DNA of 62,756 nt, counting the filler. It is 7 parts of 7 records of this genome, joined end to end, with 100 filler letters (N's around TTAATTAATTAA, not from the genome) between each part and the next. Parts side by side here need not be neighbours in the genome. Positions count along the whole stretch, not along the records: positions 18,599 to 29,097 come from SRR31156797_7907; 6 more parts are not named here. The stretch is one strand, 5' to 3'. A program made the translations under genes and the position numbers. Positions 8,483 through 29,241 of this stretch are shown here, in pieces (the stretch's first letter is position 1; the number at the start of each line of letters is the position of its first letter). The notes under the pieces are model-generated. The model was not told the origin of the DNA, did no database searches, and saw nothing but the letters and a program-made list of their open reading frames with translations.

Positions 8483-8516
8483 ATAGAGAGAGCTTATTCG
8501 GCTTTCTCTATTTTTT
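8483..8516 (+). terminator. Rho-independent terminator after the phoH-like gene
   Basis: ATAGAGAGAGC...GCTTTCTCTAT stem followed by a T-run. Confidence 0.7.
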
Positions 8517-9443: not shown

Positions 9444-9613
9444 AGGGAACTTTAGAAAGTGATAGATTTCATTTGGAAGTCAAAATAAACCTTGAAAATA
9501 AATAACAGCTATTATATAATGATTTGGTATAATGGGATTTTTGTGTTTCCATTTTGATATTAATTATGAGAATAAAATTATAAAATTTTATGAAAGAAAA
9601 GGAGAGGATTCTT

Positions 9614-10041: not shown

Positions 10042-10141
10042 NNNNNNNNNNNNNNNNNNNNNNNNNNNNNNNNNNNNNNNNNNNNTTAATTAATTAANNN
10101 NNNNNNNNNNNNNNNNNNNNNNNNNNNNNNNNNNNNNNNNN
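10042..10141. other. Artificial contig linker
   Basis: N44-TTAATTAATTAA-N44, with stops in all six frames; genes cut on both sides. Confidence 0.98.
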
Positions 10142-13343: not shown

Positions 13344-14650
13344 CAATTATGATGGTTGTATCCCTTTTTGGACTTATTTTAATTGGAGTTCCTGTAGCTT
13401 TTGCAATTGCTGGAGCTGGTTTATTGTTTGGAGTTATTGGTGTAGATATGAATCTATTCAATCTTCTTCCATCTAGAATTTTTGGCGTTCTTACAAACTA
13501 TACACTTTTAGCTGTACCTTTATTTGTATTTATGGGTATTTTACTTGAAAAGTCTCGTCTAGCAGAAAAGATGTTAGATGTATTAGGTTTATTATCTGGT
13601 AAAAAACCTGGTGGGATGGCTATTGCTATTATTGTAGTTGGTATTTTAATGGGAGCATCAACTGGTATTGTAGGAGCAACTGTTGTAACTTTAACAATGA
13701 TTGCATTACCAACATTATTAAAAAGAAACTATAGTCATAGTGTATCATGTGGAACAATCTGTGCTTCAGGAACATTGGGACAAATATTACCTCCAAGTTT
13801 GGTTCTAATTTTATTAGCTGATATTAGTGGAGAAGCTATTGGTCCTTTATTTGCTGCTGCATTAATGCCGGGATTATTATTAGCAGTTTGTTATATTATT
13901 TATATTGTTTTATTGAGTAAGTTTGCACCTCATCATGTTCCACCTATTGATCAAGAAGAGAGAGAATCTTACTCTAAAAAAGAGTTATGGATTGAATTTT
14001 TTAAATCTGTTGCACCGCCTTTTTTATTGATATTTGCTGTACTTGGTTCTATTATTGGTGGGTTAGCAGCTCCTACAGAAGCAGCTTCTATGGGTGCTAT
14101 TGGTGCATTAGTTATTGTAGGTTTAAGCAAAAGACTAAATTTAGCAATTTTAAAAGAAACTTTATATGAAACTATGAAAGTGACTGGTATGATTATGTTC
14201 GTTCTTATCGCCTCACAAGTTTTCGGACTTAGTTTTAGAGGTTTAGATGGGGATTATTTAGTTGAAGATCTTTTTGCAGCAATACCAGGGGGAATGTGGG
14301 GATCAATTCTATTTATGATGTTAGTTTTATTTGTTTTAGGATTCTTCCTAGAATGGATTGAGATATCATATATTGTATTACCATTAGTATTACCAATATT
14401 CCATGCACTTGATATAAATATGATTTGGTTAGGTATTTTAGTAGCCTTAAACCTTCAATCATCATTTTTAACCCCACCCTTTGGTTGGTCACTCTTTTTC
14501 TTAAAAGGGGTTGCTCCTAAAGAGATAAAAACTATGGAGATATATAAAGGGGTATTGCCATTTATTGCAATTCAAATTGTTGTAATTGCATTAGTGATGA
14601 TATTCCCTGAAATAGCCCTTTGGCTACCAAAAGCAATAGGATGGATGTAA
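13325..14650 (+). CDS. dctM: TRAP large permease
   Basis: GVPVAFA, LAVPLFVFMG, SGTLGQILPPS, PTEAA, SFLTPPFG. Confidence 0.92.
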   Translation: MDPQILAIMMVVSLFGLILIGVPVAFAIAGAGLLFGVIGVDMNLFNLLPSRIFGVLTNYTLLAVPLFVFMGILLEKSRLAEKMLDVLGLLSGKKPGGMAIAIIVVGILMGASTGIVGATVVTLTMIALPTLLKRNYSHSVSCGTICASGTLGQILPPSLVLILLADISGEAIGPLFAAALMPGLLLAVCYIIYIVLLSKFAPHHVPPIDQEERESYSKKELWIEFFKSVAPPFLLIFAVLGSIIGGLAAPTEAASMGAIGALVIVGLSKRLNLAILKETLYETMKVTGMIMFVLIASQVFGLSFRGLDGDYLVEDLFAAIPGGMWGSILFMMLVLFVLGFFLEWIEISYIVLPLVLPIFHALDINMIWLGILVALNLQSSFLTPPFGWSLFFLKGVAPKEIKTMEIYKGVLPFIAIQIVVIALVMIFPEIALWLPKAIGWM

Positions 14651-14651
14651 T

Positions 14652-16247
14652 ATGAATAACTTACCTTTCACTCAAGTTTCAAATAATGGTATGGTGGTTT
14701 CACCTCACCATTGCGCTTCAGACGCTGGACTTGAGATTTTAAAACAAGGGGGAAACGCAATTGAAGCTACAATTGCAGTTGCCTCATCTTTAGCAGTTCA
14801 CTACCCACATATGACGGGGATTGGTGGTGATGCATTTTGGTTAATCTATGACCCTAAAGAGGGTGTTAGTTTTATAGAAGCGTCAGGATACTCAGGCTTT
14901 GATGTAAATATGAGTCAATATCAAGGGCTAGAAACAATACCTTTTAGAGGTAGATTAGCTGCAAATAGTGTAGCTGGTGCTGTTTCTGCTTGGGACTTAG
15001 CATACAAAAAAAGTAAAGATGATTGGAATGGGGAACTTCCAACTTCAAAACTTGTAGAAGAAGCAGTTACTTCTGCTAAAAATGGAATTGTTGTTACTGA
15101 GTCTTTATCTCAAACACTTGAAGAAAAAAAAGATGAGTTAATAGTAGATTCTTATTTTGCAAATATCTATTATCCAAATGGAAATGTTCCACAAAAAGGG
15201 GAAAAGCTTCTTCAAGAAAAACTTGGAAAAACTTTAGAAACACTAGGTCAAAATGGATATGATGATTTTTATAGAGGAAACTTATCAGAAGATATTGCAA
15301 AGGATTTAGAGCAAAGAGATGCATTACTATCAAAAAAAGATTTAAGTGAGCATAATGCTTCTTGGAATAAAGCTTTAGAGATGAAAACAAGTAATGCAAA
15401 ACTTTTTAATGCTTCAGCACCAACTCAAGGTGTGGCTTCACTTATGATTTTAGGTTTATTTGATAGATGGGTAGAAAAACTGCCAGAAAAAGATTCAACA
15501 AATCATGTTCATCTATTAGTTGAAGCAACAAAAATTGCTTTTAAACATAGAGACAAAATGAATACAGCAGCAACTCCTGAAGAGTTACAAGCTTGGCTTG
15601 AACCTGAATATCTTGATAAATTAAGTGAAGATATTGATTTAGACAAAGCAATGCCTTGGGGAGAAAATGCAGCTCCTGGTGATACAACTTGGTTTGGTGT
15701 AATGGATAGTGAAGGTAGAGTTGTAAGTGCTATTCAAAGTATTTACCACGAATTTGGAAGTGGATTAACCCTTCCTGAAACTGGTATTGTTTGGCAAAAT
15801 AGAGGTTGTAGCTTTGCTTTAGATTCAACTCATATTCAAGCTTTAGAGCCACATAAAAAGCCATTTCATACATTAAACCCTGCAATTGCATTATTTGATG
15901 ATGGAAGAGTTATGGCTTATGGAACTATGGGTGGAGATGGTCAACCTCAAACTCAAGCAGCAGTTTTCTCTAGATATGCTTATTATGAAGAGGATTTGCA
16001 AACTTGCATAAATAATCCAAGATGGCTTTTAGGAAGAACTTGGGGTAACTCATCTCAAAGTTTAAAACTTGAATCAAGATTTGATGAAAAGTTAATTGAA
16101 GAACTAAAAGAAAAAGGTCATGATGTTGAAATTTTAGGTGAATTAGATTCTGCTGTTGGTCATGCCGGAGCTTTAGTTTATGATTCATCTAAAACAATAA
16201 AAGGGGCATTTGACCCAAGAAGTGATGGTAAAGCATCAAGTTTTTAA
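14652..16247 (+). CDS. Gamma-glutamyltransferase-family Ntn hydrolase, most like oxamate amidohydrolase HpxW
   Basis: GGNAIEA...YPHMTGIGGD; autoprocessing Thr in GDTTWFGVMD; QSIYHEFGSG, WQNRG, PFHTLNP, MGGDGQPQTQ; no signal peptide. Confidence 0.8.
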   Translation: MNNLPFTQVSNNGMVVSPHHCASDAGLEILKQGGNAIEATIAVASSLAVHYPHMTGIGGDAFWLIYDPKEGVSFIEASGYSGFDVNMSQYQGLETIPFRGRLAANSVAGAVSAWDLAYKKSKDDWNGELPTSKLVEEAVTSAKNGIVVTESLSQTLEEKKDELIVDSYFANIYYPNGNVPQKGEKLLQEKLGKTLETLGQNGYDDFYRGNLSEDIAKDLEQRDALLSKKDLSEHNASWNKALEMKTSNAKLFNASAPTQGVASLMILGLFDRWVEKLPEKDSTNHVHLLVEATKIAFKHRDKMNTAATPEELQAWLEPEYLDKLSEDIDLDKAMPWGENAAPGDTTWFGVMDSEGRVVSAIQSIYHEFGSGLTLPETGIVWQNRGCSFALDSTHIQALEPHKKPFHTLNPAIALFDDGRVMAYGTMGGDGQPQTQAAVFSRYAYYEEDLQTCINNPRWLLGRTWGNSSQSLKLESRFDEKLIEELKEKGHDVEILGELDSAVGHAGALVYDSSKTIKGAFDPRSDGKASSF

Positions 16248-16263
16248 ATAAGGACAAATTTTT

Positions 16264-17070
16264 ATGAATGAATTATTAGTTTTAGTACCTATCTTACTTG
16301 CAAGTGGTGTAGTAGCTGGTTTGCTAGCAGGATTACTTGGTGTTGGTGGAGGAATAGTAATTGTTCCTATGCTTTATCATATATTTATATATATGAATAT
16401 TGATATCTCAATTGCGATGCCTTTATCAATTGGAACATCTTTATCAACTATTGTTGTAACATCTATTATCTCAGCAAGATCTCACCACAAAAAAGGTGGT
16501 ATTGATTGGGATTTATCAAAAAAATGGATTCCATTTGTGATTTTTGGAGTTTTAATTGGAGCATTTTCATCAAAGTTTATTGATGGTACTAATTTAAAAT
16601 TTATGTTTGGTATTTTACTTTTAGTTGTATCAATCAATATGATTATCAGTAGTTTCAAAAGTCTTGTAATAGCTGAATCGCTTCCAGGTAAATTTGGGCA
16701 ATCAATTTTTGCTACACTTCTTGGAGGATTTGCATCACTTTTAGGTATCGGTGGAGGAACATTAATGGTTCCATTATTATCACTATTTTCATTTCCAATT
16801 CATAGAGCTGTTAGTACAGCTTCATTGTTTGGTTTGATTATTAGTGTACCTGCAACTATTGGTTATATTCTTGTTGGTTGGAATGTAGAAAATTTACCTT
16901 TAGCTTCAACAGGATATGTTAACTGGTTGGCATTTATTGTTCTAGTTCCTATGACAATGTTCTTTGCTCCATATGGTGTTAAGCTTGCATATAAACTAAA
17001 TGTAAAACAACTTAAATTAGCTTTTGCTATCTTTTTAGCTTGTGTGGGATTAAAAATGGTATTGGTTTAA
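16264..17070 (+). CDS. TSUP/TauE-SafE family exporter
   Basis: Duplicated GLLGVGGG / SLLGIGGG motifs, about 8 TM. Confidence 0.88.
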   Translation: MNELLVLVPILLASGVVAGLLAGLLGVGGGIVIVPMLYHIFIYMNIDISIAMPLSIGTSLSTIVVTSIISARSHHKKGGIDWDLSKKWIPFVIFGVLIGAFSSKFIDGTNLKFMFGILLLVVSINMIISSFKSLVIAESLPGKFGQSIFATLLGGFASLLGIGGGTLMVPLLSLFSFPIHRAVSTASLFGLIISVPATIGYILVGWNVENLPLASTGYVNWLAFIVLVPMTMFFAPYGVKLAYKLNVKQLKLAFAIFLACVGLKMVLV

Positions 17071-17222
17071 AACCAATACTTCCCACAGAAAAACTCCTCT
17101 TTTATCCACTCATTCATTTTTCACATCAAATTTTACAATATTTATAAATATACTTTTGATATAATATAAATCTATAAAATATAATATTATATAAAAATAT
17201 ATAGAAAAAAGTAGGTAAGTAC

Positions 17223-17819
17223 ATGTCATTCGTAGTTTATAGTATCAAAGGTGGTGTTGGAAAAACAACTTTATCAGTTCAAATTTCTCAAATGTTAGAG
17301 TATACATATGTAACAAATGATTCACACTCTTCAGCTCATAACCTTATGCCAGAAGAAAAAGGATTTTTAGTTTCAAAAGAGGATTATGAAGAGATTCCTT
17401 ATGATGATAATGTTGTTTATGACTTTGGTGGATTTAAAGATGAAAGAATAAAAGATATAATAAAACAAGCAAAAAAAGTATTAATCCCAACTCTAACTTC
17501 TATTGTAGATTTACAAGCAACTCTTGCAACTTTAAAAGATGTTTTAGAGATAAACAAAAATATTGTTATAGCTATAAATAGAGCAAAAAACAATAACAAA
17601 GCAAAAGAGTTAAAAGAGTATTTAAAAGAAGAAATAAAAAAAGAGTTTGATAATCTTGATATTCCTATAATTTTTGTAAGAGAATCTTCTGTATTAGAGG
17701 ATTCACTTTTTGATTGTGAATATATTGAAAACAAAGCTGGGAATAATAGATTTAAAAGACATATATATAGAAATGCAATTGAAGATATGAGCAATATTAA
17801 AAAAATACTAAAGGATTAG
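17223..17819 (+). CDS. Small ParA/MinD-family ATPase (type Ib-like, no HTH)
   Basis: Deviant Walker A SIKGGVGKTT, Walker B VVYDFGG, INR motif; 198 aa. Confidence 0.8.
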   Translation: MSFVVYSIKGGVGKTTLSVQISQMLEYTYVTNDSHSSAHNLMPEEKGFLVSKEDYEEIPYDDNVVYDFGGFKDERIKDIIKQAKKVLIPTLTSIVDLQATLATLKDVLEINKNIVIAINRAKNNNKAKELKEYLKEEIKKEFDNLDIPIIFVRESSVLEDSLFDCEYIENKAGNNRFKRHIYRNAIEDMSNIKKILKD

Positions 17820-17820
17820 T

Positions 17821-18087
17821 ATGAGTTATGCAGATAAACTAAAACAAAACTCTTCTAAAATCAAAACAGATGAAAAGGTTTTAGAAGAGAAAACAAAAAA
17901 AAGAATGGGAAGACCCAAAAAAGCTAAAGAGGAAGTAAGAAACACTGCTATTCCTGTAGCTCTTAGCCAAAAAGAAAAAGATTGGATTGAAGAGCAAGCT
18001 TTGAATATGTCAAAAGAGATAGGAGTAAAAATCACTACCTCTGCTTGGATGAGAATGAGACTTTTGAAAGATATGCCAAGCAATTAA
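17821..18087 (+). CDS. Small basic protein, probable ribbon-helix-helix partner of the ParA
   Basis: Starts 1 nt after the parA stop; KRMGRPKK followed by a strand-helix-helix pattern (AIPVAL-SQKEKDWIEEQA-TTSAWMRMRLL). Confidence 0.6.
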   Translation: MSYADKLKQNSSKIKTDEKVLEEKTKKRMGRPKKAKEEVRNTAIPVALSQKEKDWIEEQALNMSKEIGVKITTSAWMRMRLLKDMPSN

Positions 18088-18498
18088 GAAGATGAAATCT
18101 CTTTAAAAACCTCATCACTAGCTTTGATAGTTGAGTCAATCATCTCATCTGTTAAAGCTGTGCATATAAAACCTGTCTCAAGTTGAGAACCTGCAAAATA
18201 GAAACCTCTATCTAGCATCCCTTTATAAAACTTTTTAAATATTTCAATTTTACTTTTTGTTGCAATTTCATAATTTGTAACTTTTTCATCATTGAAAAAT
18301 ATTCCAAAAATAGAACCTCTTACATCTGTTTGCATAGTTATTCCATATTTGGCTGCATTTTCTTTTAAACCTTGTGTTAATTTTATCGCTTTTTGTTCAA
18401 GCGTTTCAACTAGATTTGGTATTGATTTAAGTTTTTTGATAGAAGCTAAACCTGCACTCATAGCAATAGGATTTCCACTTAAAGTTCCTGCTTGATAA
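18084..18498 (-). CDS. hemL: Glutamate-1-semialdehyde 2,1-aminomutase, C-terminal part
   Basis: YQAGTLSGNPIAMSAG...GSIFGIFF...SQLETGFI; 5' end cut by the linker. Confidence 0.9.
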
Positions 18499-18598
18499 NN
18501 NNNNNNNNNNNNNNNNNNNNNNNNNNNNNNNNNNNNNNNNNNTTAATTAATTAANNNNNNNNNNNNNNNNNNNNNNNNNNNNNNNNNNNNNNNNNNNN
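18499..18598. other. Artificial contig linker
   Basis: N44-TTAATTAATTAA-N44. Confidence 0.98.
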
Positions 18599-18779
18599 GA
18601 TGCGTTGGTTCGCAGATAAGTACCCAGACGTCGAATTGAAGAGTTTGATGTAAGAGTCGTTTATATGACGGTGTTTTAAGACTGATTTAATCTGTTTTTT
18701 ATTGAAAAGAAATAATTAGATGCGTTGGTTTGTAAGAAGTCCTTTTTTATTGAAATTGATAAGAAGGGGCTTTTTTTGT

Positions 18780-19685
18780 ATGGAATGGGAAGAGATTATT
18801 GGAGAGTTTTGTTTAGATATTACTGTCAGAGGATTTTCAAAAATAACAATTAAGAATTATAAATCTAAATTGTCGAACACAGCAAAGTTTTTTAAATCCA
18901 TTAGTGTTTGTCCATCAAATTTGAAAAAAACTCACGTATCTTTGTGGATTTTAGATATGCAAGAAAAGCAAATGCAAGCATCGACAATAAATCTAAGCGT
19001 AAGTCGGATGAAAAAGCTATATGACTATATGTTAAAAGAAAATTATGTTGAGAATAATCCTTTCGAAAGAATTGAAAGATTGAAAGAGCAGACTAAGGTA
19101 ATTTATCCATTGAATGATTTTGAGATTAAGCAAATGTTATCAGCTGCAAGAAATCATAGATACAAATATATAGCACAACGAAATGTTGTGATTCTGATGT
19201 TAATGATTGAATGCGGACTAAGAATTAGCGAAGTTTGCGAAATCACGGACGTGGATATAATGAGTAATCAAATTCTTATTAAAAATTCTAAAAATAATAA
19301 GGATAGAGCAGTGGCGATTAGTCCAATTATAAAAAAAGAGATAATAAAGTATCAGCGTTTAAAGAAGAAAAAGTATGGTTCAATTAAAGGCAATCCGTTT
19401 ATAATCAGTAATAAGTCAAGCAAACTTAACGAAAAAGCAATTTGGCAAATTATGCAAGAAATAAAGAAAGAAATACAAGTAAGGAGTTGTGTAAGATTCT
19501 CAGGACATACATTAAGACATACATATGCGAGTATGCAATTAAGAAATGGTTTAGATATTTATACGCTGAGTCTAAATATGGGACATAGTACAATTCAGAT
19601 GACTCAAAGATATGTTCAGACGTTAAATAGTGAAGATTTTATTGAGAAATCTATTAAAACAAGTACTCTGATGAATTTGAGATGA
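18780..19685 (+). CDS. Tyrosine recombinase/integrase (SAM-like N domain + catalytic domain)
   Basis: CGLRISE (R), SKNNKDR (K), GHTLRH (HxxR), MGH, TQRY (Tyr nucleophile). Likely start MEWEE at 18780. Confidence 0.92.
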   Translation: MEWEEIIGEFCLDITVRGFSKITIKNYKSKLSNTAKFFKSISVCPSNLKKTHVSLWILDMQEKQMQASTINLSVSRMKKLYDYMLKENYVENNPFERIERLKEQTKVIYPLNDFEIKQMLSAARNHRYKYIAQRNVVILMLMIECGLRISEVCEITDVDIMSNQILIKNSKNNKDRAVAISPIIKKEIIKYQRLKKKKYGSIKGNPFIISNKSSKLNEKAIWQIMQEIKKEIQVRSCVRFSGHTLRHTYASMQLRNGLDIYTLSLNMGHSTIQMTQRYVQTLNSEDFIEKSIKTSTLMNLR

Positions 19686-20226
19686 TTCATTCACTGATGC
19701 TACTGGTCAAGAAGTTAAAACAGCTTTCTTAGACTTTGAATTGGACTTCCCAATTAAAGCACAAAAAATGAACTCAGCAGCAGAATTAGAAATTCGTGCG
19801 ATGTCTACTGAAAAATCAGTAATCACACAAGCGTTTATTGATGAAGTATTGGCTAAATCTGCTGAATTGATTGAAAAATCTGACTTGGCTTGGAAAAATT
19901 CTCACACAAACTTGCAAGAGTTTACGAATGACGAATACCAAGCATACATGGAAGATAACGGAGCATACTTCAATGACTTGAAAGCACAATACCTAACTCA
20001 AAAAGATGTTGACTTTGCTCGTAAAGTATTGGAAACTGCTAAAGGAAATAACCAATTCAAAAAAGATGAAGACGGTAATACTTCAGGAACTGAAGTAACA
20101 GAATCTACTGTTGAAGAAACAACAACAGTTCCAGATGAAAAACTTGTAAAAGAAAATACTGCAGTAGCTGATGAATCAGCTATCCCTGCTGAGGATTTAC
20201 TAGGCTTAGGTGATTTATCTATTTAA
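19681..20226 (+). pseudogene. 5'-truncated fragment of an acidic protein (SSB-like acidic tail), function unknown
   Basis: Frame open from 19681 (DDSFTDATGQEVK...) with no ATG or RBS; biased, highly-expressed-type codons; ends ...AEDLLGLGDLSI. Confidence 0.5.
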
Positions 20227-20249
20227 TAATAAGTAATAGAGAGGAAATT

Positions 20250-20300
20250 AAATATACACGAGAAGATAGATTGTTTGTCTAACTTCTCGTGTATATTTTT
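20250..20300 (+). terminator. Strong hairpin terminator
   Basis: AAATATACACGAGAAG...CTTCTCGTGTATATTT 16-bp perfect stem followed by Ts. Confidence 0.8.
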
Positions 20301-20486
20301 GTATAGAATTAAAATTAAATATATGCGATGAATTACCTATACTTAACGAAAAAATTACAAAACGTTGTTTAATAATTAAAGTGAATTTTTAGCGGTGTCA
20401 TTTAAATTAATAGAATTTAAGCGTTTACTTAGATAATATGATATAATTAAATTAAAATCTCATATTATAGTAGGGAGTTATTTCTT

Positions 20487-21800
20487 ATGGAAGAAGTTTT
20501 TGAAGTAATTAATCAAAGTATTGATTATCGGGCTTCATCTTATGTAAATGTAATCCATGAAAAAGAATTAAAACAAGTTTTGCTGAAGGCTATTGAACAA
20601 AAGGGAAAAACTTTAGATGATAATTTATTTGATGAGCTAAACACATTGCATAATATATTTTATTATATATTAGAAAAAAAGTTGTTATCAGTTATAGAAC
20701 TTAACAAACTTATTATAGAAAATATTAGGTTTAACTGTAGCAATATTTTCTTAGAGAGGTCGTCTATAAATATTACAGATGAAAATATTAAATCAGGAAT
20801 TAGAAATATTTCTAGAAAATATAGTTTGAATAACACTCCAACTAATTATCATGATGATTTTTCTGACTCAGGATACAATCTTTTGGATAGAATTTCTTCA
20901 AAAAATTTGAACGAGATATATTTTCCTGTAATAGATTATGATGAAAATAGTGTTCACATAATGGCAAGTGTAAAATTTTTAGATAAGGATGAAAATTCGT
21001 CATTAAGAGTTTGTATTATATATCTGGATAGAAAAACTGGATATACTACTTTCTATGTTAATGGAAAGGTGGGAGGATTTAAAATTAAGAATGATAACAA
21101 CGTCTCTATATCATCAAGTATTGCTTTTTTTAAGCACATTAGAACAATAATAAATAGCTTTTTTTCTTTTGATTTTGTTTCTTATAAGAATAGTTGTTAT
21201 ATAAATAGAGCTAAAATGTTTAACTTTTGTAATAAAATGAATAGCCTAATGATAGGAGATTATTCTGAAGAGTTGAACGCTTCTTTATCTCCTATTTTAA
21301 AAAGACAAATTCGAAAAATATTTAGTGAAATGAATAAAATGAATAGTAAAGTAAAGTTAGACACTGAGAAAACTGAAATGTTAATTAAACGAATTTTTTC
21401 TAATTATTTAGGAGAATTTATTACAACTGGCTACAATGAACGTGATTTGGTAAAAAAAGCGAAAGAAGCAGGTGCAGTATGCTATCCTACTAAGATTAGC
21501 TTCAGAGGACAGCAGTTAGCCCGTGGAAAAGCAACAACAAGAGGTAGAAAATTCCCATTAACATTTGAATCAATTTTTTATAGCTTAAATACTGATATAG
21601 AAATTGCGGGAGAACTAGATGAATTTACTTTAGCTTGGTTTGATACTGATTTTTTTGCCGAACGTTCAGAATTAGAGGTAAGTCAAACAACAATTAAAAT
21701 AACTGAGGAAATATTTTCATTAACTTTAAAAAATTCAAAATATAAGAATAAAGGGATGACCGAGCATATTGAAAGAGAAATTAGAAACGCTATTTATTAA
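20487..21800 (+). CDS. Hypothetical 437-aa protein, first gene of a putative defence operon
   Basis: Long AT-rich ORF with GGGAG RBS and an upstream TGnTATAAT extended -10; no motif recognised; overlaps the SIR2 gene by 32 nt. Confidence 0.8.
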   Translation: MEEVFEVINQSIDYRASSYVNVIHEKELKQVLLKAIEQKGKTLDDNLFDELNTLHNIFYYILEKKLLSVIELNKLIIENIRFNCSNIFLERSSINITDENIKSGIRNISRKYSLNNTPTNYHDDFSDSGYNLLDRISSKNLNEIYFPVIDYDENSVHIMASVKFLDKDENSSLRVCIIYLDRKTGYTTFYVNGKVGGFKIKNDNNVSISSSIAFFKHIRTIINSFFSFDFVSYKNSCYINRAKMFNFCNKMNSLMIGDYSEELNASLSPILKRQIRKIFSEMNKMNSKVKLDTEKTEMLIKRIFSNYLGEFITTGYNERDLVKKAKEAGAVCYPTKISFRGQQLARGKATTRGRKFPLTFESIFYSLNTDIEIAGELDEFTLAWFDTDFFAERSELEVSQTTIKITEEIFSLTLKNSKYKNKGMTEHIEREIRNAIY

Positions 21801-22968
21801 TAATCAAAAATGGAACAAGTTGTTAAATATGACGGCTTTGAATGGAGATAAATACTTTCGGGAAAAACATTATTTGGACTTGATAAAAAAATATATGCCA
21901 AAAGAAGATTCTGTAGAAATTTTTAAAGAATTATTGGGAAAAAAAATGTTTAAAAGAAAATTTTCATATGAATGTGATGATGATATTTATGATGCTGAAC
22001 TGTTAGAAAAAAAGTGTGAAATATGTGGACTTAAAGTTATAGAACATGAATATTTTGAGCTATATTCCCCAAGTTATTTAAGTGAACTCTCAAAAAATAA
22101 TATTCAATTAATTAAAGATTATTATGATTCAGATTCTAAAATTGTTATGGAGGATGTAAGAAGTAATATTGATAGAGTAATTCCATTTGTTGGTTCTGGT
22201 ATAAGTAAAAATGTAGGGATGCCATTATGGTTAGAGCTTTTTAAAAAAGCTAAAGATAAGATATCTGATGAGTATATACCTTACTTTGATTTAGAATATG
22301 AATCAAAAAATATTGATAAAATTATAGAAATGGTCAAAAGAGTACATCCTTTGATTCAGGATGATAAAGATTTAAAAAAAGAAATAATAGCTCCTGAAAT
22401 AAAAAAAACTATTCCTAATGAAATCTTACTGAATTCAATAATACCTGATATATTAAAATTGGATGCAGAATATATTATTACAACAAATTATGATGATTTA
22501 CTTGAAAAAACGAGTTTATTACTATGTTCAGGATATGAAGAATCAAGAGACATTTCTTCATTCCAAGGATTTGAATCTTTGGATGAAACACAATATATAT
22601 TCCATATCCATGGTACTATTAAAAATTATGATTCAATGGTGGTTACTAATGAAGATTATAATAATTTATATGATTCTGAAGAGAAAAAAAGAATCCTTTC
22701 TGGTCTGATAAATAAACATTCTATGTTATTTTTAGGCTTTTCTATGGATGACACATACTTTAGTGATGAATTTGGGAAAATCTGTGAGTCTAATAAAGGG
22801 TATTGCACAAATTATTATGTAATGATTAATGGAGATAGACAGAAAAAAGATGAACTATTGAAGACAACAAACGTAAGGTTTATTAATATTAAATCAACTA
22901 ATTTTGATATTAAAAATCAGTATGAGTTTATGATTGAATATATATTAGGAAATATTTATATAGAGTAG
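21769..22968 (+). CDS. SIR2-like (SIR2_2) NADase-domain protein with N-terminal helical/Zn-ribbon extension
   Basis: PFVGSGIS...MPLWLEL, IITTNYDDLLE, IFHIHG, MLFLGFSMDD; N-terminal YEC...CEICG. Confidence 0.88.
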   Translation: MKEKLETLFINNQKWNKLLNMTALNGDKYFREKHYLDLIKKYMPKEDSVEIFKELLGKKMFKRKFSYECDDDIYDAELLEKKCEICGLKVIEHEYFELYSPSYLSELSKNNIQLIKDYYDSDSKIVMEDVRSNIDRVIPFVGSGISKNVGMPLWLELFKKAKDKISDEYIPYFDLEYESKNIDKIIEMVKRVHPLIQDDKDLKKEIIAPEIKKTIPNEILLNSIIPDILKLDAEYIITTNYDDLLEKTSLLLCSGYEESRDISSFQGFESLDETQYIFHIHGTIKNYDSMVVTNEDYNNLYDSEEKKRILSGLINKHSMLFLGFSMDDTYFSDEFGKICESNKGYCTNYYVMINGDRQKKDELLKTTNVRFINIKSTNFDIKNQYEFMIEYILGNIYIE

Positions 22969-22989
22969 CTAATAAAGTTACTCTTTTTG
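22961..22989 (+). terminator. Terminator closing the SIR2 operon
   Basis: AGAGTAGCT-aataa-AGTTACTCT followed by a T-run, overlapping the stop codon. Confidence 0.65.
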
Positions 22990-23040
22990 TTCTATAAATT
23001 TGCATCCTCCTATTTAAGATGCTATAAAGGTCCTTGTAAG

Positions 23041-23149
23041 GGATACTTTTGTAATTTCTATCCATCACAAAGCCTATTCTATCAATAGCTATGATGTTGA
23101 TTTAGTAAAGATGGATAGATTTATATTACAAGAGATAGAAAGTATCCAT
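23041..23149. repeat. Nested inverted repeats upstream of the second recombinase
   Basis: GGATACTTT/AAAGTATCC, TGTAAT/ATTACA and TCTATCCATC/GATGGATAGA arms. Confidence 0.7.
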
Positions 23150-23175
23150 AAATCATTCATCATGGAGGGAGGAAA

Positions 23176-23748
23176 ATGACACAGAGAAAAATTAATGTCA
23201 AACCAATTAAGTCCAAAGAGGTTCTGAATCAGTTTGCCACGGAATTTTTGAAAAACAAACATGGACAAAGAGATTATACAATTTTCGTGTTTGGTATTTT
23301 TACAGGGCTACGTATTTCAGATATTCTTAATCTGAAAGTTAGTGACGTGAAAGGAAAGCTCAAGGCTGATATTATTGAGAAAAAGACAGGGAAAAAACGC
23401 ACGCTTAATTTAATGCAATTAACAAATCAAATAATTATATACCTTGACGAGGAACACGATGGACAAAGTGAATGGTTATTTCCTAGTCCAAGGGATAATA
23501 CGAAACATTTAGCTACACACCAGTTCTATAAGATTATGCAGAAAACGGCTAATTTCCTTGATTTAGACTATATAGGAACTCATACATTGAGAAAAACCTT
23601 TGGTTATACCTATTATCAGAAAACAAAAGATTTAACTTCACTGATGAAAATTCTAAATCATAGTTCGCAGAGCGTAACTTTACGTTATATTGGTATTGAG
23701 GAAGAGGAGCTTCAGTCAAGTTTAGATAATTTTAATCCATTTCAATAA
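23176..23748 (+). CDS. Small tyrosine recombinase (catalytic domain only, 190 aa)
   Basis: TGLRISD, EKKTGK, GTHTLRKT, LNH, TLRY; GGAGG RBS. Confidence 0.92.
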   Translation: MTQRKINVKPIKSKEVLNQFATEFLKNKHGQRDYTIFVFGIFTGLRISDILNLKVSDVKGKLKADIIEKKTGKKRTLNLMQLTNQIIIYLDEEHDGQSEWLFPSPRDNTKHLATHQFYKIMQKTANFLDLDYIGTHTLRKTFGYTYYQKTKDLTSLMKILNHSSQSVTLRYIGIEEEELQSSLDNFNPFQ

Positions 23749-23764
23749 TAAAAAAGAAGCACAA

Positions 23765-24691
23765 TCAACTAAGACTGTGCTTCTTTTTTTGCGTTCTTTT
23801 AGCAACTGTATTATATTGTTTTCTATTTTCAATGCTTTTTACATATAATGTATCTAACTCTTTGTATTTTTTTCTATCATTTGAAAAAGTAATTTGATTT
23901 GTAGATTTAAAGTGATTAGATAAATAAAAAATGATTCCAAATAGACTATCAATCTTATATAAATTCCATTGTTGTTCTTTTTTTATATAGTAGTAGAAGC
24001 AATCCTCGCTTTGAACATAGATTAAGATGTCATCACGAATAAATTCTGTATTATTCTTCACTCGAAACACACGAAAATCTTTCAATTTTTCTTTAATTTT
24101 AGGTAGTTGTTGCATGGTAGGAATTGCAACAATATCTAAATTATCTAAAGAGGGAGTATGAAACAGTTGATTATCATCACGAATACTAGAGAATTGAAGA
24201 GGTATCTGAACATGATGGTGATTTATAAAATCTAAGAACAACTCTTTGTTCTGATTAGACAAACATTGATTAAACAATTGGAAAGCTTGTGGCTTCTGAC
24301 TGAAATTTTTATGATTATAGATATTTCTTACAGAACTATAAAAAGAAGCAGTCACTTGTTTTTGTTGATTCGTAGCTATTGAAAGTTTATTTGTCCTAAA
24401 CCCTAGTGTTAACATTTTTTGTAAGGCATCAGCTTGCAATTCTAAATGATTTAAATTGTCTAAATCAAATTTTTTAGCATAGTAGAAGTGTTTAGATAAC
24501 TTCTTTTTAGAAACCCATTTATGCTTTTCTAACGTGCTTAAACGAGCTTCTAAGCTAATTCTGTTACATTGTAGTATTTTTTCTAAAGTAGATTCATAAA
24601 TCCCATTAGATGCTATAACTAGTTGTAATAATTCATCACTATCAATCGCTCTTTTGTTGACAATATATTTTTTCAAATTCACTCCCTCCAA
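23765..24691 (-). CDS. Hypothetical 308-aa protein with probable N-terminal winged helix (possible Rep or regulator)
   Basis: GIYESTLEKILQCNRISLEARLSTLEKHKWVSKK resembles a wHTH; lies beside the repeat-rich region. Confidence 0.6.
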   Translation of the reverse strand: MEGVNLKKYIVNKRAIDSDELLQLVIASNGIYESTLEKILQCNRISLEARLSTLEKHKWVSKKKLSKHFYYAKKFDLDNLNHLELQADALQKMLTLGFRTNKLSIATNQQKQVTASFYSSVRNIYNHKNFSQKPQAFQLFNQCLSNQNKELFLDFINHHHVQIPLQFSSIRDDNQLFHTPSLDNLDIVAIPTMQQLPKIKEKLKDFRVFRVKNNTEFIRDDILIYVQSEDCFYYYIKKEQQWNLYKIDSLFGIIFYLSNHFKSTNQITFSNDRKKYKELDTLYVKSIENRKQYNTVAKRTQKKKHSLS

Positions 24692-24907
24692 TAATTTTTT
24701 TGCATATTTTATCAGTAATTTTCTTTCTCAAAAGTATCCATTTTTACGTAGTCAAGAAAGGTTGAAATACTCCAATTTTGTGACCCCTACATAGTGAGCA
24801 ACTACTCAATTCAATTTAAAAATTTTTTTAGGTAGCTGCTGTTTTGAAAAATTCACGGAGGTTTCCATTCGAAATTTGTAAAATTTCATCAAAAATCACC
24901 GAGTTTT

Positions 24908-24942
24908 CAAAAAGTTCTCACAAAAGTTCTCAAAAAGTTATC
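24908..24942 (+). repeat. Three tandem CAAAA(A)GTT(C/A)TC repeats
   Basis: Copies start at 24908, 24921 and 24931. Confidence 0.75.
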
Positions 24943-24967
24943 TTCTACAAAATAAAAATATACTTTA

Positions 24968-25029
24968 TGTAGGGTTAAGGTAGGGATAATGTAAGGTATG
25001 AAAATTGCTGATGTAGGGATAATGTAGGG
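24968..25029 (+). repeat. Helically phased (11-bp period) TGTAGGG-type repeats, iteron- or centromere-like
   Basis: Copies at 24968, 24979, 24990, 25012 and 25023; an inverted copy CCCCTACAT at 24784. Confidence 0.75.
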
Positions 25030-25213
25030 GTAGAAAATTAAGAGAAAAAACAGAGAAATTTCTATTAAGTATCCATCTCGTAATTATCCATTTTCAATTT
25101 ACTTCTATCTATATTATACCATCGTAAAAATGATGATGGAAATTTGAATGACATATCTAGAATTGTTGACAAAGAAAATGGTGAAATGAGAGGAAGGTAT
25201 TTGATTTGGGGAC

Positions 25214-25273
25214 AAGAAAGACGAACAAATAATTCATAACCCAATACACATTATTTGCTCGTCTTAGCTTCTT
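25214..25273 (-). terminator. Hairpin terminator downstream of the surface-protein pair
   Basis: AAGACGAACAAATAA...TTATTTGCTCGTCTT imperfect inverted repeat. Confidence 0.5.
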
Positions 25274-25281
25274 AATTGACT

Positions 25282-25905
25282 TTACTCGTTTATTATTTTA
25301 ACTTGAATGTTATAGGTAGTTTTTCCACCATGAACATTTGTATAAGTAATTTTAATATGATTTATTGCATTAACCTTCATCCTAGCACCTTCACTCAATT
25401 TATAATAACCATTACCGTAAGATACCTCACTAAATCTATAACTAACACCATTTATGTCAATAGTGGTGCTTCTATTTTGGTTGTTTCCAAAACCTTTGTC
25501 TATGGCTTCCTGTTTAACGCCAACGTTATTGTCTGAAATAGCATCTATCAATACATAACCATCTTCTATAATAGGCATACTAACACTACTCAATTTCTTC
25601 AAATTAATTGTTCTCATACCTGTATTATCAGGTGTCCAAATATCTGGACCGGCATATACGTTTTGAAACCAAATACCTATATAACCTTTAACTTCAAATG
25701 AATTATGAAACTTCCCTACACAGTTACCTTCACTACCATCTAATAAATTAGTATCTTCACCAACTTGTTCAAAACTATCACAGTAAATATTTGCCAAACT
25801 TGGCTTAAGAGTATCTTTAAATAATAGGTAACTTATGAAAACAAAAATACCAAATATTACGATTGCTACGACTACAAAAAGTCCTTGTGAACTCCCATCT
25901 GCCAT
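25282..25905 (-). CDS. Membrane-anchored, pilin-like surface protein, paralogue 1
   Basis: ATG 25905 after GGAGG; MADGSSQGLFVVVAIVIFGIFVFISYLLFKD, then a beta-rich C-terminal domain. Confidence 0.75.
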   Translation of the reverse strand: MADGSSQGLFVVVAIVIFGIFVFISYLLFKDTLKPSLANIYCDSFEQVGEDTNLLDGSEGNCVGKFHNSFEVKGYIGIWFQNVYAGPDIWTPDNTGMRTINLKKLSSVSMPIIEDGYVLIDAISDNNVGVKQEAIDKGFGNNQNRSTTIDINGVSYRFSEVSYGNGYYKLSEGARMKVNAINHIKITYTNVHGGKTTYNIQVKIINE

Positions 25906-26035
25906 TATTAACCTCCTTTCCCTGTATAAAGACAATTGCAGTAATTGTTTTTTTTTATCTGTATAATCATTTCTATATGCTAATTTTGTTGCACCAAATA
26001 AAACGGCTCTTCATTAACCCAAAAAAATCATTGAT

Positions 26036-26575
26036 TTATATTTTGGTTCCTGACGAGTTGATACTATAAGTCTCAGGTCTACTAGACTCATATTCCTGAG
26101 CATTTAATATACCAATAAAATCAAACTGATAGATTTCGTTTGGCTTTAAGTTTATTGTTTTTTCTAATTCAGTTGAATAGATTGAATTTATGTCAGTTGT
26201 ATGTATATTTCCGATAAATAAACCTCTACCCTCAGCAGTAAATTTTACTTTATATGATAATTCCTTGTCTGTCAGATTTTTGATTGTCACATTGATATTC
26301 TCAGATAGCCTAGGGAAAGTAGGGCTATCAAAATCCAATTTGTTAAAATTGAAATTCAAGTCGCTGATTTCAATGGATATTTCAGAATTTATTGTGGGAT
26401 TGTCAGTTACCATATTTATTAAATTATTCTCGGCTTGCTCTAAACCATCCTTAAAAATTCCTGATAAATTAGGACTTATAATGTCCCTAAACAGCAAATA
26501 ACTCAAGAATACAAAAATACCGAATATTACGATTGCTACAACTACAAATAGTCCTTGTGAGCTTCCATTAGTCAT
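26036..26575 (-). CDS. Membrane-anchored, pilin-like surface protein, paralogue 2
   Basis: MTNGSSQGLFVVVAIVIFGIFVFLSYLLFRD, then an unrelated Ig-like C-terminus; AGGAGG RBS. Confidence 0.75.
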   Translation of the reverse strand: MTNGSSQGLFVVVAIVIFGIFVFLSYLLFRDIISPNLSGIFKDGLEQAENNLINMVTDNPTINSEISIEISDLNFNFNKLDFDSPTFPRLSENINVTIKNLTDKELSYKVKFTAEGRGLFIGNIHTTDINSIYSTELEKTINLKPNEIYQFDFIGILNAQEYESSRPETYSINSSGTKI

Positions 26576-26921
26576 TAAAAATACCTCCTTTGTGTTATTT
26601 TATCACCTCTTTATTATATCGAATCTGAGTGTTTTTACAAATTTTTAGTGTATAGAAATGCTTTGTATAATTCGATAAATAAGCAATTAATGCTTTGTTT
26701 AAGGGGATATAATAGAAAAGTAAAGGTATGATTCATTTTATAGACAATCGTTATATTTGATGAGATAATATAATTACCTTGACGAAAACCATTTATAATG
26801 ACCTCTAAATCTTTAAGTGTTTTTCAATTACCTTGACTATTCCCCAGTTAGTCAGGGGATTTTTGTATTTAAAATTATTTATTTAAACTAAACTAAGAAA
26901 AAGGAAAGGAGGAAACCATTT

Positions 26922-27488
26922 ATGACAAGAACTATTGGTTATATACGCACAAGTAAAAACACACAAGACCTAGGATTGGAAGTACAACGAAAAGCATTAG
27001 AACGATTTGAGCCAGATGAATTATTTTCTGAACAAATCAGTGGGCGAAAAGAAAATCGAACAGAACTAGAGAAAGCGTTGAATTGCTTGGAAAAAGGTGA
27101 CACTTTACTTATTTACAATTTATCAAGGTTGAGTCGTTCCTCGAAACAATTAGTAAATTTAATGTCTGAACTGAATGAGCAGGAGATTTATCTGAAAAGT
27201 ATCCAAGAATCCATCGATACCAGAACAGCGAGCGGACGCTTGTTCTTTACCGTTTTAGCAGGTATTGCAGAGTTTGAAGCGGAAAGTATTAGTTTACGAA
27301 CAAAAGAAGCGTTGGCTAACTCGGATAAACGACTAGGCAGACCACCGATTAAGAAAAATAAATGCAAAAAAATTATTATTTTGTATCAAGAAAATAAGTT
27401 ATCGCTAAAAGAAATTGCAAAAAAATGTGGTGTATCTGAGAAAACGGTTTACAATATTGCTAAAAAAGAAGGTCTTTCAAGAAAATGA
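26922..27488 (+). CDS. Serine recombinase (resolvase/invertase family) with C-terminal HTH
   Basis: IGYIRTS (catalytic Ser), SG...R, LSRLSRS, IAEFE, GRPP, LKEIAKKCGVSEKTVY. Confidence 0.92.
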   Translation: MTRTIGYIRTSKNTQDLGLEVQRKALERFEPDELFSEQISGRKENRTELEKALNCLEKGDTLLIYNLSRLSRSSKQLVNLMSELNEQEIYLKSIQESIDTRTASGRLFFTVLAGIAEFEAESISLRTKEALANSDKRLGRPPIKKNKCKKIIILYQENKLSLKEIAKKCGVSEKTVYNIAKKEGLSRK

Positions 27489-27706
27489 GACTTGATAAAT
27501 TATCAATCTAAGGGTAACATTATTAGAGGGAAGCAAGGTTTTACCGGCAATAATTCAACGTTTTTTACCGATACTAAATTAAAAAAATAATTTACATAAA
27601 GAAGACGATTGTATCAACATTTTTGAAGTTGATTCGATGGTCTTATTTTGTTGTGGCAAAAACGTTGATTTATTACCTCGCATGAGAGTGAGAAAGGATT
27701 GGTTTT

Positions 27707-28801
27707 GTGGGACTAAGTAAACGTGCAAAGATTGGTATAGGAATAATAGGAGCAGTTTTAATTTCTAGCTGGGGAGTTTACACCTATGTTCAAAAACAAA
27801 AAGAATTGAAAAGAGAGCTAACAATTGAAGAAACAAGAGATTTAAGACCGTTTTCTGCAGTAGATAAAACTTATTCAAATGAAGAAGGTCAATTAGTGAT
27901 GACATTTAAGTTTGAAAAAGATTACATTGATGAAAACAAACGACAGAAAATGGAATATTATCTATACAATTCTCAAAATGATGAATTGACTAAGCTACCA
28001 TTAGATTTAGAAGACAAAGTTGAATATACCATTGATTTAAAAGAAGCTATTCGACCAGAAATCATGAAATTCGTTAATACAGGAGATGGTCAATATCCGT
28101 ATGACCCCTATAGATTTCAAGAATTGTTGAGGAACGAATTTGTGGACGAGCACCTTTATTGGATAGCTACTCCTAAAGATTATATAGAGAAATATACTAT
28201 TGATAAATACAATAAGTTTGCAAAAGAAAATAGTTTTTTTACCACTAGTTCTGATATTGCTTTTGAATTGGATTTAACAGAGCAAAACAAAGATTCGTAT
28301 AGAGGCGGTTACTCAACAATCAGTGAATATGTTTCAAGTTTAATTACGAATGACTTATCACCGCAAGATTTTGCCTATTTAGTAACAAAAGTGAGAGGAA
28401 ATGTTCCAAGAAAAGTAGAAATTTTAAATGCAACTCCCTTTGAAGGTCAATATTCTGCAATATTAAAAAAGGGCTATTTCGCTAGAGGAAATTATGAATT
28501 TAGAAGAACAGGATATGTAGTCCCAGAAGATTTTGGCTTGCCAACATACAGTCCGATGAGTTTGTATATGCAAACGTATAGTGTTTCTGAAAGTGAAGAA
28601 GAAGCTTTAGCAGGAGATATATCAGAATGGAATCAACAAATTATTGATGACAAAGAAAAGTATGAAAAAGAATCTGACTTGATATTCTTTGATAAAAAGA
28701 TTCAAAAGTTAGGAAAAATTGAAAATGCTCTATTTACTTTTCGTATAAATGATGAATTAGGACAGTGGTTGGAAATTACAACCGATGATGCAGATGAATA
28801 G
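27707..28801 (+). CDS. Hypothetical N-terminally anchored extracellular protein, 364 aa
   Basis: Basic N-terminus and single TM (IGIGIIGAVLISSWGVYTY); AAAGGA RBS. Confidence 0.7.
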   Translation: MGLSKRAKIGIGIIGAVLISSWGVYTYVQKQKELKRELTIEETRDLRPFSAVDKTYSNEEGQLVMTFKFEKDYIDENKRQKMEYYLYNSQNDELTKLPLDLEDKVEYTIDLKEAIRPEIMKFVNTGDGQYPYDPYRFQELLRNEFVDEHLYWIATPKDYIEKYTIDKYNKFAKENSFFTTSSDIAFELDLTEQNKDSYRGGYSTISEYVSSLITNDLSPQDFAYLVTKVRGNVPRKVEILNATPFEGQYSAILKKGYFARGNYEFRRTGYVVPEDFGLPTYSPMSLYMQTYSVSESEEEALAGDISEWNQQIIDDKEKYEKESDLIFFDKKIQKLGKIENALFTFRINDELGQWLEITTDDADE

Positions 28802-29030
28802 TTTGGCAACGAAAAAATATGTTATTCATAAAGTGAAAAGGACTTTTTATAAAGCGAATGTAACGATTCCACAGTTGGTTGTAAACAGCATAGCTAATGA
28901 ATTGTATAAAGAATTTGTCAAATGCTCAGAAAGTGAGCAACAATCTTTGTTGGATTCTGGTGAACTAGTAAAATTACTTTGGGATAAACATGTAGTGACT
29001 AAAGAAAAAGAATTGTTAGAAGAGATATGA
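28794..29030 (+). CDS. Small hypothetical protein
   Basis: ORF overlapping the previous stop; plausible composition; start uncertain (28785, 28788 or 28794). Confidence 0.55.
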   Translation: MNSLATKKYVIHKVKRTFYKANVTIPQLVVNSIANELYKEFVKCSESEQQSLLDSGELVKLLWDKHVVTKEKELLEEI

Positions 29031-29097
29031 GTAAAATCATGTCTCTTTTTTTCTCGAAATTCATGTCAAAAACCACTTAAAAAATGACCCTTAAAAA

Positions 29098-29197
29098 NNN
29101 NNNNNNNNNNNNNNNNNNNNNNNNNNNNNNNNNNNNNNNNNTTAATTAATTAANNNNNNNNNNNNNNNNNNNNNNNNNNNNNNNNNNNNNNNNNNNN
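29098..29197. other. Artificial contig linker
   Basis: N44-TTAATTAATTAA-N44. Confidence 0.98.
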
Positions 29198-29241
29198 TCG
29201 AACTTGGAAAAAACTCCTCATTTCTGGCCAGACACTAACTG

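Follow-up and report, generated by a model that had tools for sequence, protein, structure and literature searches.

SIR2-type NAD+ hydrolases (NADases) are a recurring killing module of bacterial immunity, and for each system the sensor of infection is the open question. To our knowledge, the oldest known phage-exclusion sensor is RexA of phage lambda, whose partner RexB is a membrane ion-channel protein. The yeast proteins IML3 and CHL4 correspond to human CENP-L and CENP-N. RexA, RdgC and IML3/CHL4 are described as sharing one common DNA-binding fold (available text of PMC11077077), and for the GAPS4 system, whose trigger is DNA damage, a GAPS4b ring encircling double-stranded DNA is predicted, with the helical domains of GAPS4b as the docking site of a PD-(D/E)xK subunit (available text of PMC13748975). 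Here, a stretch of 62,756 nucleotides (nt) composed of seven joined parts (the window) was analyzed, in which an operon at 20487..22968 encodes a protein of a family unnamed in any library scanned (gene 1), followed by a fusion of a zinc-binding module with a SIR2 domain (gene 2). From sequence comparisons and predicted models, the operon is somewhat more probably than otherwise a two-gene, abortive-infection type anti-phage system in which an RdgC-like sensor would control a SIR2 NADase. All structure comparisons use predicted models, and the positions of features are collected in Table 1.

The assignment of gene 2 as the putative effector is carried by its SIR2 domain. The motifs GSGIS, TTNYD, HIHG and FLGFS, listed as intact in the initial annotation, are all present; the catalytic-type residues N240, D242 and H281 are invariant in 19 sequences; and residues 236-372 match SIR2_2 (PF13289) in Pfam at 7e-23. 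Among PADLOC models LmuA gave the best match (2.4e-30, SIR2 part only), with ThsA and Dsr1 also matching. A profile of 19 homologues matched SeThsA (7uxt) at 1.4e-19, and its alignment to ThsA, KomC and FAM118B covers the GAG/Gly-rich loop, TTNYD and HGD motifs. Foldseek searches with the AlphaFold2 model (predicted local distance difference test score, pLDDT, 86.4) returned DSR2, ThsA, KomC and FAM118B, with E values from 1.7e-11. Some gene-2 homologues are labeled 'NAD-dependent protein deacylase' by NCBI, and RdgC modulates RecA (available text of PMC11077077); both points would suit a housekeeping or regulatory pair, in which an RdgC-like recombination regulator works with a sirtuin deacylase or ADP-ribosyltransferase on DNA-repair proteins. 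Such a role is very improbable: gene 2 falls in SIR2_2 and is nearer to defense NADases and FAM118B than to CobB-type deacylases; occurrence is sporadic, never above 5 of 93 genomes within a genus; and in relatives the place of SIR2 is taken by a membrane protein or an Mrr-type nuclease, with one locus lying in a prophage.

Ahead of the SIR2 domain, gene 2 carries a module whose putative zinc ligands C69, C83, C86 and H93 (C-CxxC-H) show no variation across 19 homologues or across 10 diverse partner proteins. Its secondary-structure elements in the model (H13-24, H32-42, H48-57, E61-69, E72-76 and E94-101) stand in a winged-helix-like order. Of the winged helix-turn-helix and zinc module proposed initially, the zinc part is backed by invariant ligands, whereas the winged-helix label comes solely from the order of secondary structure in the model. 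Pfam matches of the module at E<=10 were noise only, and NCBIfam release 20 (June 2026) contains no model for either protein.

Gene 1 and gene 2 occur together well beyond the window. Ten fetched loci were scanned with our own hidden Markov models, and 9 of them, like the window, carry a gene-2 relative directly downstream of, and overlapping, the gene-1 relative. The overlap is 32 nt in the window, where both it and the open reading frame (ORF) coordinates given initially match the ORF calls, and 32 to 41 nt in nine other SIR2-type loci; for L009 the ORF call gives 68 nt, which becomes about 32 nt when counted from the Met aligned with the others. The TTG start of gene 2 coincides with the aligned start position of its homologues in the 19-sequence alignment. 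In an all-against-all comparison of flanks, gene 1 and gene 2 were the sole genes common to all 10 SIR2-type loci (window included), and their relatives adjoin in each of them, so that the module is self-contained, as had been proposed, with no common third gene. On plasmids, tblastn located gene-1 relatives of 24 to 31% identity in 21 Bacillus cereus-group records; 18 of the 20 matches listed are annotated as 'hypothetical protein / SIR2 family protein' and the other two as 'hypothetical protein (x2)', and both Bacillus plasmids that were checked closely contain the overlapping gene pair. Pairing persists down to 24% identity for gene 1. The divergent family member P0098 gave no tblastn match against plasmids. 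Searches of genomes contributed further loci. Gene-1 and gene-2 homologues were on equally long contigs in 6 cases. Occurrence is sporadic (1 of 401 genomes in the order sample, 3 of 401 in the class sample, and 5 of 93 and 2 of 19 in two genera). The pair is a real conserved two-gene cassette of Gram-positive bacteria, rare but conserved in Bacilli.

The same arrangement could be expected of a toxin-antitoxin-like addiction module, in which SIR2 would be the toxin and gene 1 a stoichiometric inhibitor, the pair stabilizing the mobile element that carries it instead of sensing phage. The gene order, in which a toxic enzyme comes second and overlaps its upstream partner, points to translational coupling, the pair is found on plasmids and between recombinases, and a complex of the two proteins is weakly supported (see below). 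We nevertheless consider an addiction module quite unlikely, as gene 1, with 437 amino acids (aa) and a DNA-clamp-like fold, is unlike small labile antitoxins, and the three-gene variant with a separate adaptor, described below, misfits a simple two-part pair. In addition, L009 and L016, from related genomes, are flanked on either side by shared chromosomal genes, as would not be expected of a purely mobile addiction module. The toxin-antitoxin-like and defense roles are compatible and not mutually exclusive.

Gene 1 has no match in Pfam, NCBIfam (release 20), PADLOC or PHROGs. Since no Pfam, PADLOC or NCBIfam model matches, it has no Walker-type ATPase, TIR or PIWI match, in agreement with the absence of these motifs noted at the outset. 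Scans of 54 family members with Pfam and PADLOC gave no consistent match, only isolated noise. Two candidates were discarded as noise: Csm2 matches of gene 1 (E 0.008 to 0.011), which fall on a coiled-coil stretch, and an isolated ArgoMid match in 1 of the 54 members (E 0.069). The family is small, with 14 clusters in a word-based search and 58 representatives at E<=0.001 among 1.84 billion in a profile search, nearly all of about 430 aa; its named members come from Enterococcus, Brochothrix, Paenibacillus, Bacillus and Priestia, with a partial sequence from Lacticaseibacillus. All sources that give names call the relatives "hypothetical protein".

A system already described and named elsewhere, beyond the libraries and literature searched, would also give these results: the PADLOC-DB used dates from 2023, the Pfam set scanned was without PF26110 (GAPS4b_N), and preprint supplements and subscription journals fall outside the literature search. 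This is decidedly unlikely given the lack of an NCBIfam release 20 model, the lack of a consistent PADLOC match among the 54 members and the uniform 'hypothetical protein' labels; moreover, the accessions of both proteins in L003 and in L004 were not found in the literature.

The AlphaFold2 model of gene 1 (pLDDT 84.7, predicted template modeling score 0.84) can be read as an RdgC-like body to which an acidic bundle of helices is added at the N-terminus. The best structural match of the model is a DNA clamp; identity to RdgC is 9 to 10% at a root mean square deviation of about 5 A, with no Pfam RdgC match. Foldseek returned nothing at E<=0.001 in PDB or BFVD, the weak top BFVD rows, all above E 0.001, being phage 'exonuclease' and RdgC proteins, and sequence and profile searches against PDB chains gave noise only. 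In the conserved C-terminal half, between invariant YPTxISF and PLxF motifs, lies a loop of low model confidence (pLDDT <50 at residues 342-358) with a net charge of +7 over aa 336-360, which is Ser/Thr/Lys/Arg/Gly-rich and net positive (+2 to +7) in 14 of 14 family members sampled. Despite sequence drift, the loop is retained across all family clades. Its role could be that of a DNA finger, or of a site for modification or cleavage.

The nature of the trigger is where the two-gene defense reading divides. A phage protein bound by the bundle or body of gene 1 might release SIR2, instead of a DNA state doing so: the N-terminal 85 residues have the lowest conservation of four regions compared (0.32 vs 0.35, 0.36 and 0.48), as expected for an arms-race surface, the closest SIR2 structures include DSR2 bound to a phage tail tube protein, and the RdgC-like fold is also present in protein-binding kinetochore subunits. 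A phage-protein trigger is nonetheless unlikely in our judgment, because the best fold match is a DNA clamp, the C-terminal half contains a conserved, strongly basic loop (+7), and the analogues RexA and GAPS4b act on DNA, as the available texts describe them.

A search for swapped effectors beside gene-1 homologues, which had been suggested at the outset, found the pattern: a two-transmembrane (2-TM) protein or an Mrr-type nuclease replaces SIR2. L018 encodes a distant gene-1 relative (hhalign to the family, probability 97.5%, E 8e-12) without a SIR2 partner, followed by an overlapping 176-aa protein (helical N-terminus and zinc ribbon) and a 195-aa protein with two N-terminal hydrophobic helices. 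A search with this relative returned 4 of 401 genomes, namely the query's own and three further genomes. The three-gene form (gene-1 relative, zinc-ribbon protein, 2-TM protein) is found in L018, L025 and L027, the last of which is duplicated as L028. The stand-alone zinc-ribbon proteins are helical with CxxC...CxxC, and the genes overlap. L026 differs in that its zinc-ribbon protein carries a fused C-terminal domain identified in the Atlas as Mrr_cat (features 0.92; structure template modeling score 0.82, with the bar for naming met). The four zinc-ribbon proteins of the variant loci are clearly mutually related. Relatives in which the zinc-ribbon gene stands separate or is fused to an Mrr domain lend support to the initial proposal of gene 1 as sensor or scaffold and of the zinc module as adaptor.

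Family members are found on mobile elements and in prophage. L027 and L028 lie directly 3' of a prophage tail endopeptidase, holin and GH25 endolysin, L025 adjoins a large serine recombinase and an insertion sequence transposase, and L018 is near an integrase. The two copies of the three-gene relative (L027 5409-7702 and L028 5149-7442) are about 60 kb apart on one contig.

Complex formation between gene 1 and gene 2 was predicted without alignments, giving an interaction prediction score from aligned errors (ipSAE) of 0.50 (runs 0.48, 0.50 and 0.50) vs 0.00 for the best control, with at least 95% of contacts agreeing between runs and a partner pLDDT of at least 80. In the tool's calibration, 51 of 78 solved complexes reached the mark, as did 2 of 108 mismatched pairs. 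With an ipSAE of 0.60 or under, only 5 of the 78 solved complexes did so, together with all 4 of the mismatches that passed (of 180). A complex of gene 1 with gene 2 is weakly supported by this model.

The proposed mechanism is as follows. Gene 1 would act as sensor or scaffold, with an RdgC-like DNA-clamp fold and an extra N-terminal helical bundle, and gene 2 as a SIR2 NADase effector tethered to the sensor through its N-terminal winged-helix-like, zinc-binding adaptor. The complex would be inactive in the resting cell. On infection, gene 1 would sense an abnormal DNA state (phage replication or recombination intermediates, DNA ends or damage) and change conformation, the SIR2 domain would be released or assembled, and hydrolysis of NAD+ would halt the infected cell before phage release. 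In the relatives, a common sensor-adaptor chassis may drive a 2-TM membrane protein or an Mrr-type PD-(D/E)xK nuclease. We infer DNA as trigger, NAD+ depletion and phage protection.

Several results weigh against this interpretation. The complex score falls in a band where passes are mostly wrong unless the guess was likely beforehand, and no fused sensor-effector protein was found among longer proteins, which is weak evidence per the search tool. No relative was found in the phage collection (tblastn with gene 1) or the IMG/VR scan. L008, L009 and L016 lie among ordinary metabolic or transporter genes and not among obvious defense genes, and none of the four window flanking proteins scanned (ORFs 18720-19685, 19741-20226, 23176-23748 and 23765-24691) matches PADLOC. 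The N-terminal module of gene 2 does not align significantly with the stand-alone zinc-ribbon proteins (hhalign E 0.012, probability 3.5%); the weak alignment is collinear and includes the zinc ligands. Because homology of the modules is not significant, the idea that they are the same adaptor draws on position and architecture.

The layout of the locus is given in Table 1. Both ORFs flanking the operon as annotated initially match Phage_integrase, placing it between two tyrosine recombinases. The 161-aa ORF upstream of gene 1 is absent from the other SIR2-type loci and has no family match in Pfam, PADLOC, NCBIfam or PHROGs; from comparison with L019 it is taken as a cut-down remnant of a larger gene and not a conserved third component. 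The hairpin that follows probably terminates the upstream ORF and insulates the operon. Upstream of gene 1, the exact extended -10 element TGATATAAT proposed as the operon's own promoter is present, but its statistics are not compelling. The pattern occurs 7 times in the window vs 3.76 expected, with 5 of 100 shuffles reaching 7, and a general promoter scan of the window showed no enrichment (20 found vs 27.1 expected), so that the promoter is plausible and not statistically compelling. At the 3' end, the proposed terminator was recovered as a stem and T run over the stop codon of gene 2 (dG -10.1, z -2.84; 3 of 200 shuffles as stable); the scan found 3 terminator-like sites vs 0.6 expected. 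The operon is very AT-rich in absolute terms (GC 24.8 to 27.2%), as claimed, but does not contrast with neighboring DNA: the entire 1-29 kb part of the window has a GC content of 22 to 36%, so the composition of the operon is not distinct from its surroundings.

Table 1. Positions of the operon genes, their predicted parts, and flanking features, counted along the window
Feature	Position	Strand	Description
Gene 1	20487..21800	+	ATG start; 437-aa protein of unnamed family, predicted RdgC-like body; proposed sensor or scaffold
Gene 1 N-terminal helical bundle, aa 16-83	20532..20735	+	Acidic, absent in RdgC; proposed docking or variable surface
Gene 1 basic loop, aa 339-357	21501..21557	+	Candidate DNA-contacting or trigger loop
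Gene 2	21769..22968	+	TTG start; 399-aa fusion of winged-helix-like and zinc-binding module, then SIR2 NADase-type domain
Gene 2 N-terminal module, aa 1-103	21769..22077	+	Proposed adaptor
Gene 2 zinc ligand C69	21973-21975		Putative zinc ligand
Gene 2 zinc ligand C83	22015-22017		Putative zinc ligand
Gene 2 zinc ligand C86	22024-22026		Putative zinc ligand
Gene 2 zinc ligand H93	22045-22047		Putative zinc ligand
Gene 2 SIR2 domain, aa 133-399	22165..22965	+	
Gene 2 N240	22486-22488		SIR2 catalytic-type residue
Gene 2 D242	22492-22494		SIR2 catalytic-type residue
Gene 2 H281	22609-22611		SIR2 catalytic-type residue
Tyrosine recombinase, left flank	18720..19685	+	321 aa, outside system; Pfam Phage_integrase 1.6e-26 and SAM-like N-terminal domains
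161-aa ORF	19741..20226	+	79% identical to C-terminal 161 aa of a 423-aa ORF in L019
Hairpin then T run	20250..20298	+	dG -26.6 kcal/mol, z -6.83, 0 of 200 shuffles as stable
Extended -10 TGATATAAT	20439..20447	+	Candidate promoter, 40 nt 5' of gene 1 ATG; consensus-level match only
Shine-Dalgarno-like AGGGAG	20472..20477	+	9 nt 5' of gene 1 ATG
Terminator-like hairpin over gene 2 stop codon, then T run	22962..22994	+	9-bp stem at 22962-22984, 3 GC pairs
Short tyrosine recombinase, right flank	23176..23748	+	190 aa, outside system; Pfam Phage_integrase 1.3e-23

The chromosomal locus L019 (4807-9850) is 82 to 88% identical in DNA to window 19678-24647, a stretch that spans the remnant ORF, both system genes, the short integrase and a 308-aa ORF. 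In L019, a 423-aa gene is intact where the window has the 161-aa ORF, and the short integrase is broken up into two ORFs of 111 aa and 76 aa. Megablast searches of 20300-23100 and of 17100-29200 against plasmids gave no match. The 20300-23100 stretch or close relatives are present in 18 public runs from 13 studies, including bird, gut and wastewater metagenomes. RNA libraries (3 runs from 2 studies) each yielded one contig of about 3 kb, about 95% alike, across both genes; as such contigs do not show transcription, they were not used as evidence of expression. In L001 (Enterococcus sp. ZJ1622), the pair follows rplM-rpsI and a 531-aa ORF without assignment (8285-9880), and a C-5 cytosine DNA methylase and an 814-aa ORF without assignment lie downstream of it (14443-18270). 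Because the methylase and the 814-aa ORF accompany the pair, the L001 region may be a small defense island.

Further observations concern the rest of the window. To the right of the operon, the minus-strand neighbors 25282-25935 (217 aa) and 26036-26575 (179 aa) have nearly the same N-terminal stretch, which includes a hydrophobic helix, and neither has a Pfam or PHROGs match. To the left, 17223-18461 contains a ParA-like ATPase (198 aa), an 88-aa ORF and a minus-strand 125-aa ORF without a Pfam match; the sequence of the last suggests the C-terminal end of an aminotransferase-type gene, and with it truncation at the island border. The stretch at 733-17070 encodes a 2030-aa hybrid sensor kinase (three solute-binding domains, PAS, HisKA, receiver and Hpt), a PhoH-PIN protein, a TRAP transporter, a gamma-glutamyltranspeptidase and a TauE exporter, a gene content that looks unlike that of the adjoining Enterococcus-type island. 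GC content across the window is a mosaic, about 22 to 36% up to about 29 kb, 47 to 64% at 29-54 kb with a peak of 63.8% at 45-46 kb, and 36 to 43% to the end. The high-GC block opens with an NAD-kinase-like gene and a 2-oxoacid dehydrogenase E1/E2 set and could be a chimeric assembly or a large foreign insertion.

The predicted fold of gene 1 links a family unnamed in the libraries scanned to DNA clamps and to lambda RexA, and the series of NADase, membrane protein and nuclease makes it possible to ask by experiment how a single sensor is coupled to several outputs. Should it be validated, the pair would be an additional defense system of Enterococcus, Bacillus and genera related to them, with a bearing on enterococcal phage therapy. 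A broader proposal, which we hold tentatively and with more doubt than confidence, is that RdgC-fold proteins are a general class of bacterial immune sensors that read DNA state. RexA, GAPS4b and the gene-1 family would then be one lineage, wired through a zinc-ribbon adaptor to at least three killing modules (SIR2 NADase, 2-TM protein and Mrr-type nuclease), the window would represent the NAD+-depleting branch, and the family would constitute a new Bacillota defense system with a natural effector-swap series.

Compared with described SIR2 systems, the operon stands apart, and the initial statement that Thoeris, DSR, SIR2-HerA and short-pAgo do not fit agrees with the Pfam and PADLOC scans. 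For Thoeris, no TIR match (ThsB) was found in gene 1 or the four flanking ORFs by Pfam or PADLOC, and there is no third gene across the 10 loci; ThsA has a C-terminal SLOG or Macro domain after SIR2, whereas gene 2 ends with SIR2, and the ThsA profile aligns to the SIR2 part only (residues 139-393 to profile positions 24-260 of 478). DSR1 and DSR2 are single proteins of at least about 1000 aa in which SIR2 is N-terminal and a long sensor region makes up the C-terminal part, in contrast to the 399 aa of gene 2, which covers only positions 23-210 of 1227 in the Dsr1 profile and has a separate conserved partner gene. As for SIR2-HerA, in which the partner is a HerA-type ATPase, gene 1 has no ATPase match in Pfam, NCBIfam or PADLOC, and none is consistent in the 54 family members. 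SPARSA pairs a short Argonaute (MID/PIWI) with a SIR2-APAZ fusion, and neither gene 1 nor gene 2 has an Argonaute or APAZ match (Pfam, PADLOC). For Lamassu, gene 1 gave no SMC-like (LmuB) match with Pfam or PADLOC, and gene 2 covers only positions 14-256 of 433 in the LmuA profile, without the LmuA C-terminal domain. CTD8 of ABC-3C systems was seen in the more distant SIR2 proteins P0039 and P0040, not in gene 2. With Kongming, only the SIR2 domain is shared, as in KomC; the operon has two genes and no conserved third gene, and no KomA/KomB model search was made. The SIR2 effectors ThsA, DSR1/DSR2, KomC and LmuA have in common with gene 2 the Gly-rich loop, the TTNYD-type Asn/Asp and the HG motifs, and the expected output is likewise NAD+ depletion; what is particular to the window family is its N-terminal zinc-binding module and its gene-1 partner.

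Azaca, to which the layout had initially been related as a possible effector-swapped form, consists of ZacA (DUF6361), the phospholipase D (PLD)-like nuclease ZacB and the superfamily 2 helicase ZacC with Walker A (available text of 10.1101/2025.07.10.664194). That relationship was not borne out, as gene 1, gene 2 and 54 gene-1 relatives have no DUF6361, PLD or helicase match. Unlike RdgC, a recombination-associated DNA-binding protein whose base, centre and tip domains make up a dimer that encircles DNA, gene 1 has the additional bundle at its N-terminus and, in every locus analyzed, an effector gene as partner. No published description of a pair joining an RdgC-, RexA- or GAPS4-like protein with SIR2 was found in a literature search that did not cover preprint supplements and subscription journals, which may list the family as a candidate; for RexA, the result refers to titles or opening lines of abstracts among the papers listed. 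A modularity-network preprint mentions SIR2 once, and RdgC and RexA never.

The closest parallels are Rex and GAPS4. Like the window pair, Rex (RexA/RexB) is a two-gene system borne on a prophage or mobile element; RexA has an RdgC-like fold and binds DNA (available text of PMC11077077), and gene 1 is predicted to be RdgC-like. The Rex effector stops the infected cell, as is proposed for the window pair, and the small membrane protein that forms the last gene of the three-gene relatives is a Rex-like trait. No sequence link between gene 1 and RexA was detected, and RexA is absent among the best 50 rows of the structural search. Unlike RexA, gene 1 is larger and has the extra N-terminal bundle, and unlike Rex, the effector in the window would be a soluble SIR2 NADase with a zinc-binding adaptor, with no membrane partner in the window. 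GAPS4 likewise has two genes, and the L026 relative has an Mrr-type PD-(D/E)xK domain, whereas in the window the order is sensor then effector and the effector is SIR2 with a zinc-ribbon module. No PADLOC match to GAPS4 was obtained for gene 1, gene 2 or the 54 gene-1 family members, PADLOC's coverage of GAPS4 being unchecked. In the Atlas, GAPS4b_N clusters score 0.90 in feature comparison near gene 1 (6 of 30 hits), which is a lead only. The proposed mechanism would parallel that of Rex, with its membrane protein, and GAPS4, with its PD-(D/E)xK nuclease, with NAD+ depletion as output instead. SIR2-based abortive infection is known; the sensor family and its natural effector-swap series are new, and the two-gene cassette most likely represents an undescribed anti-phage system.

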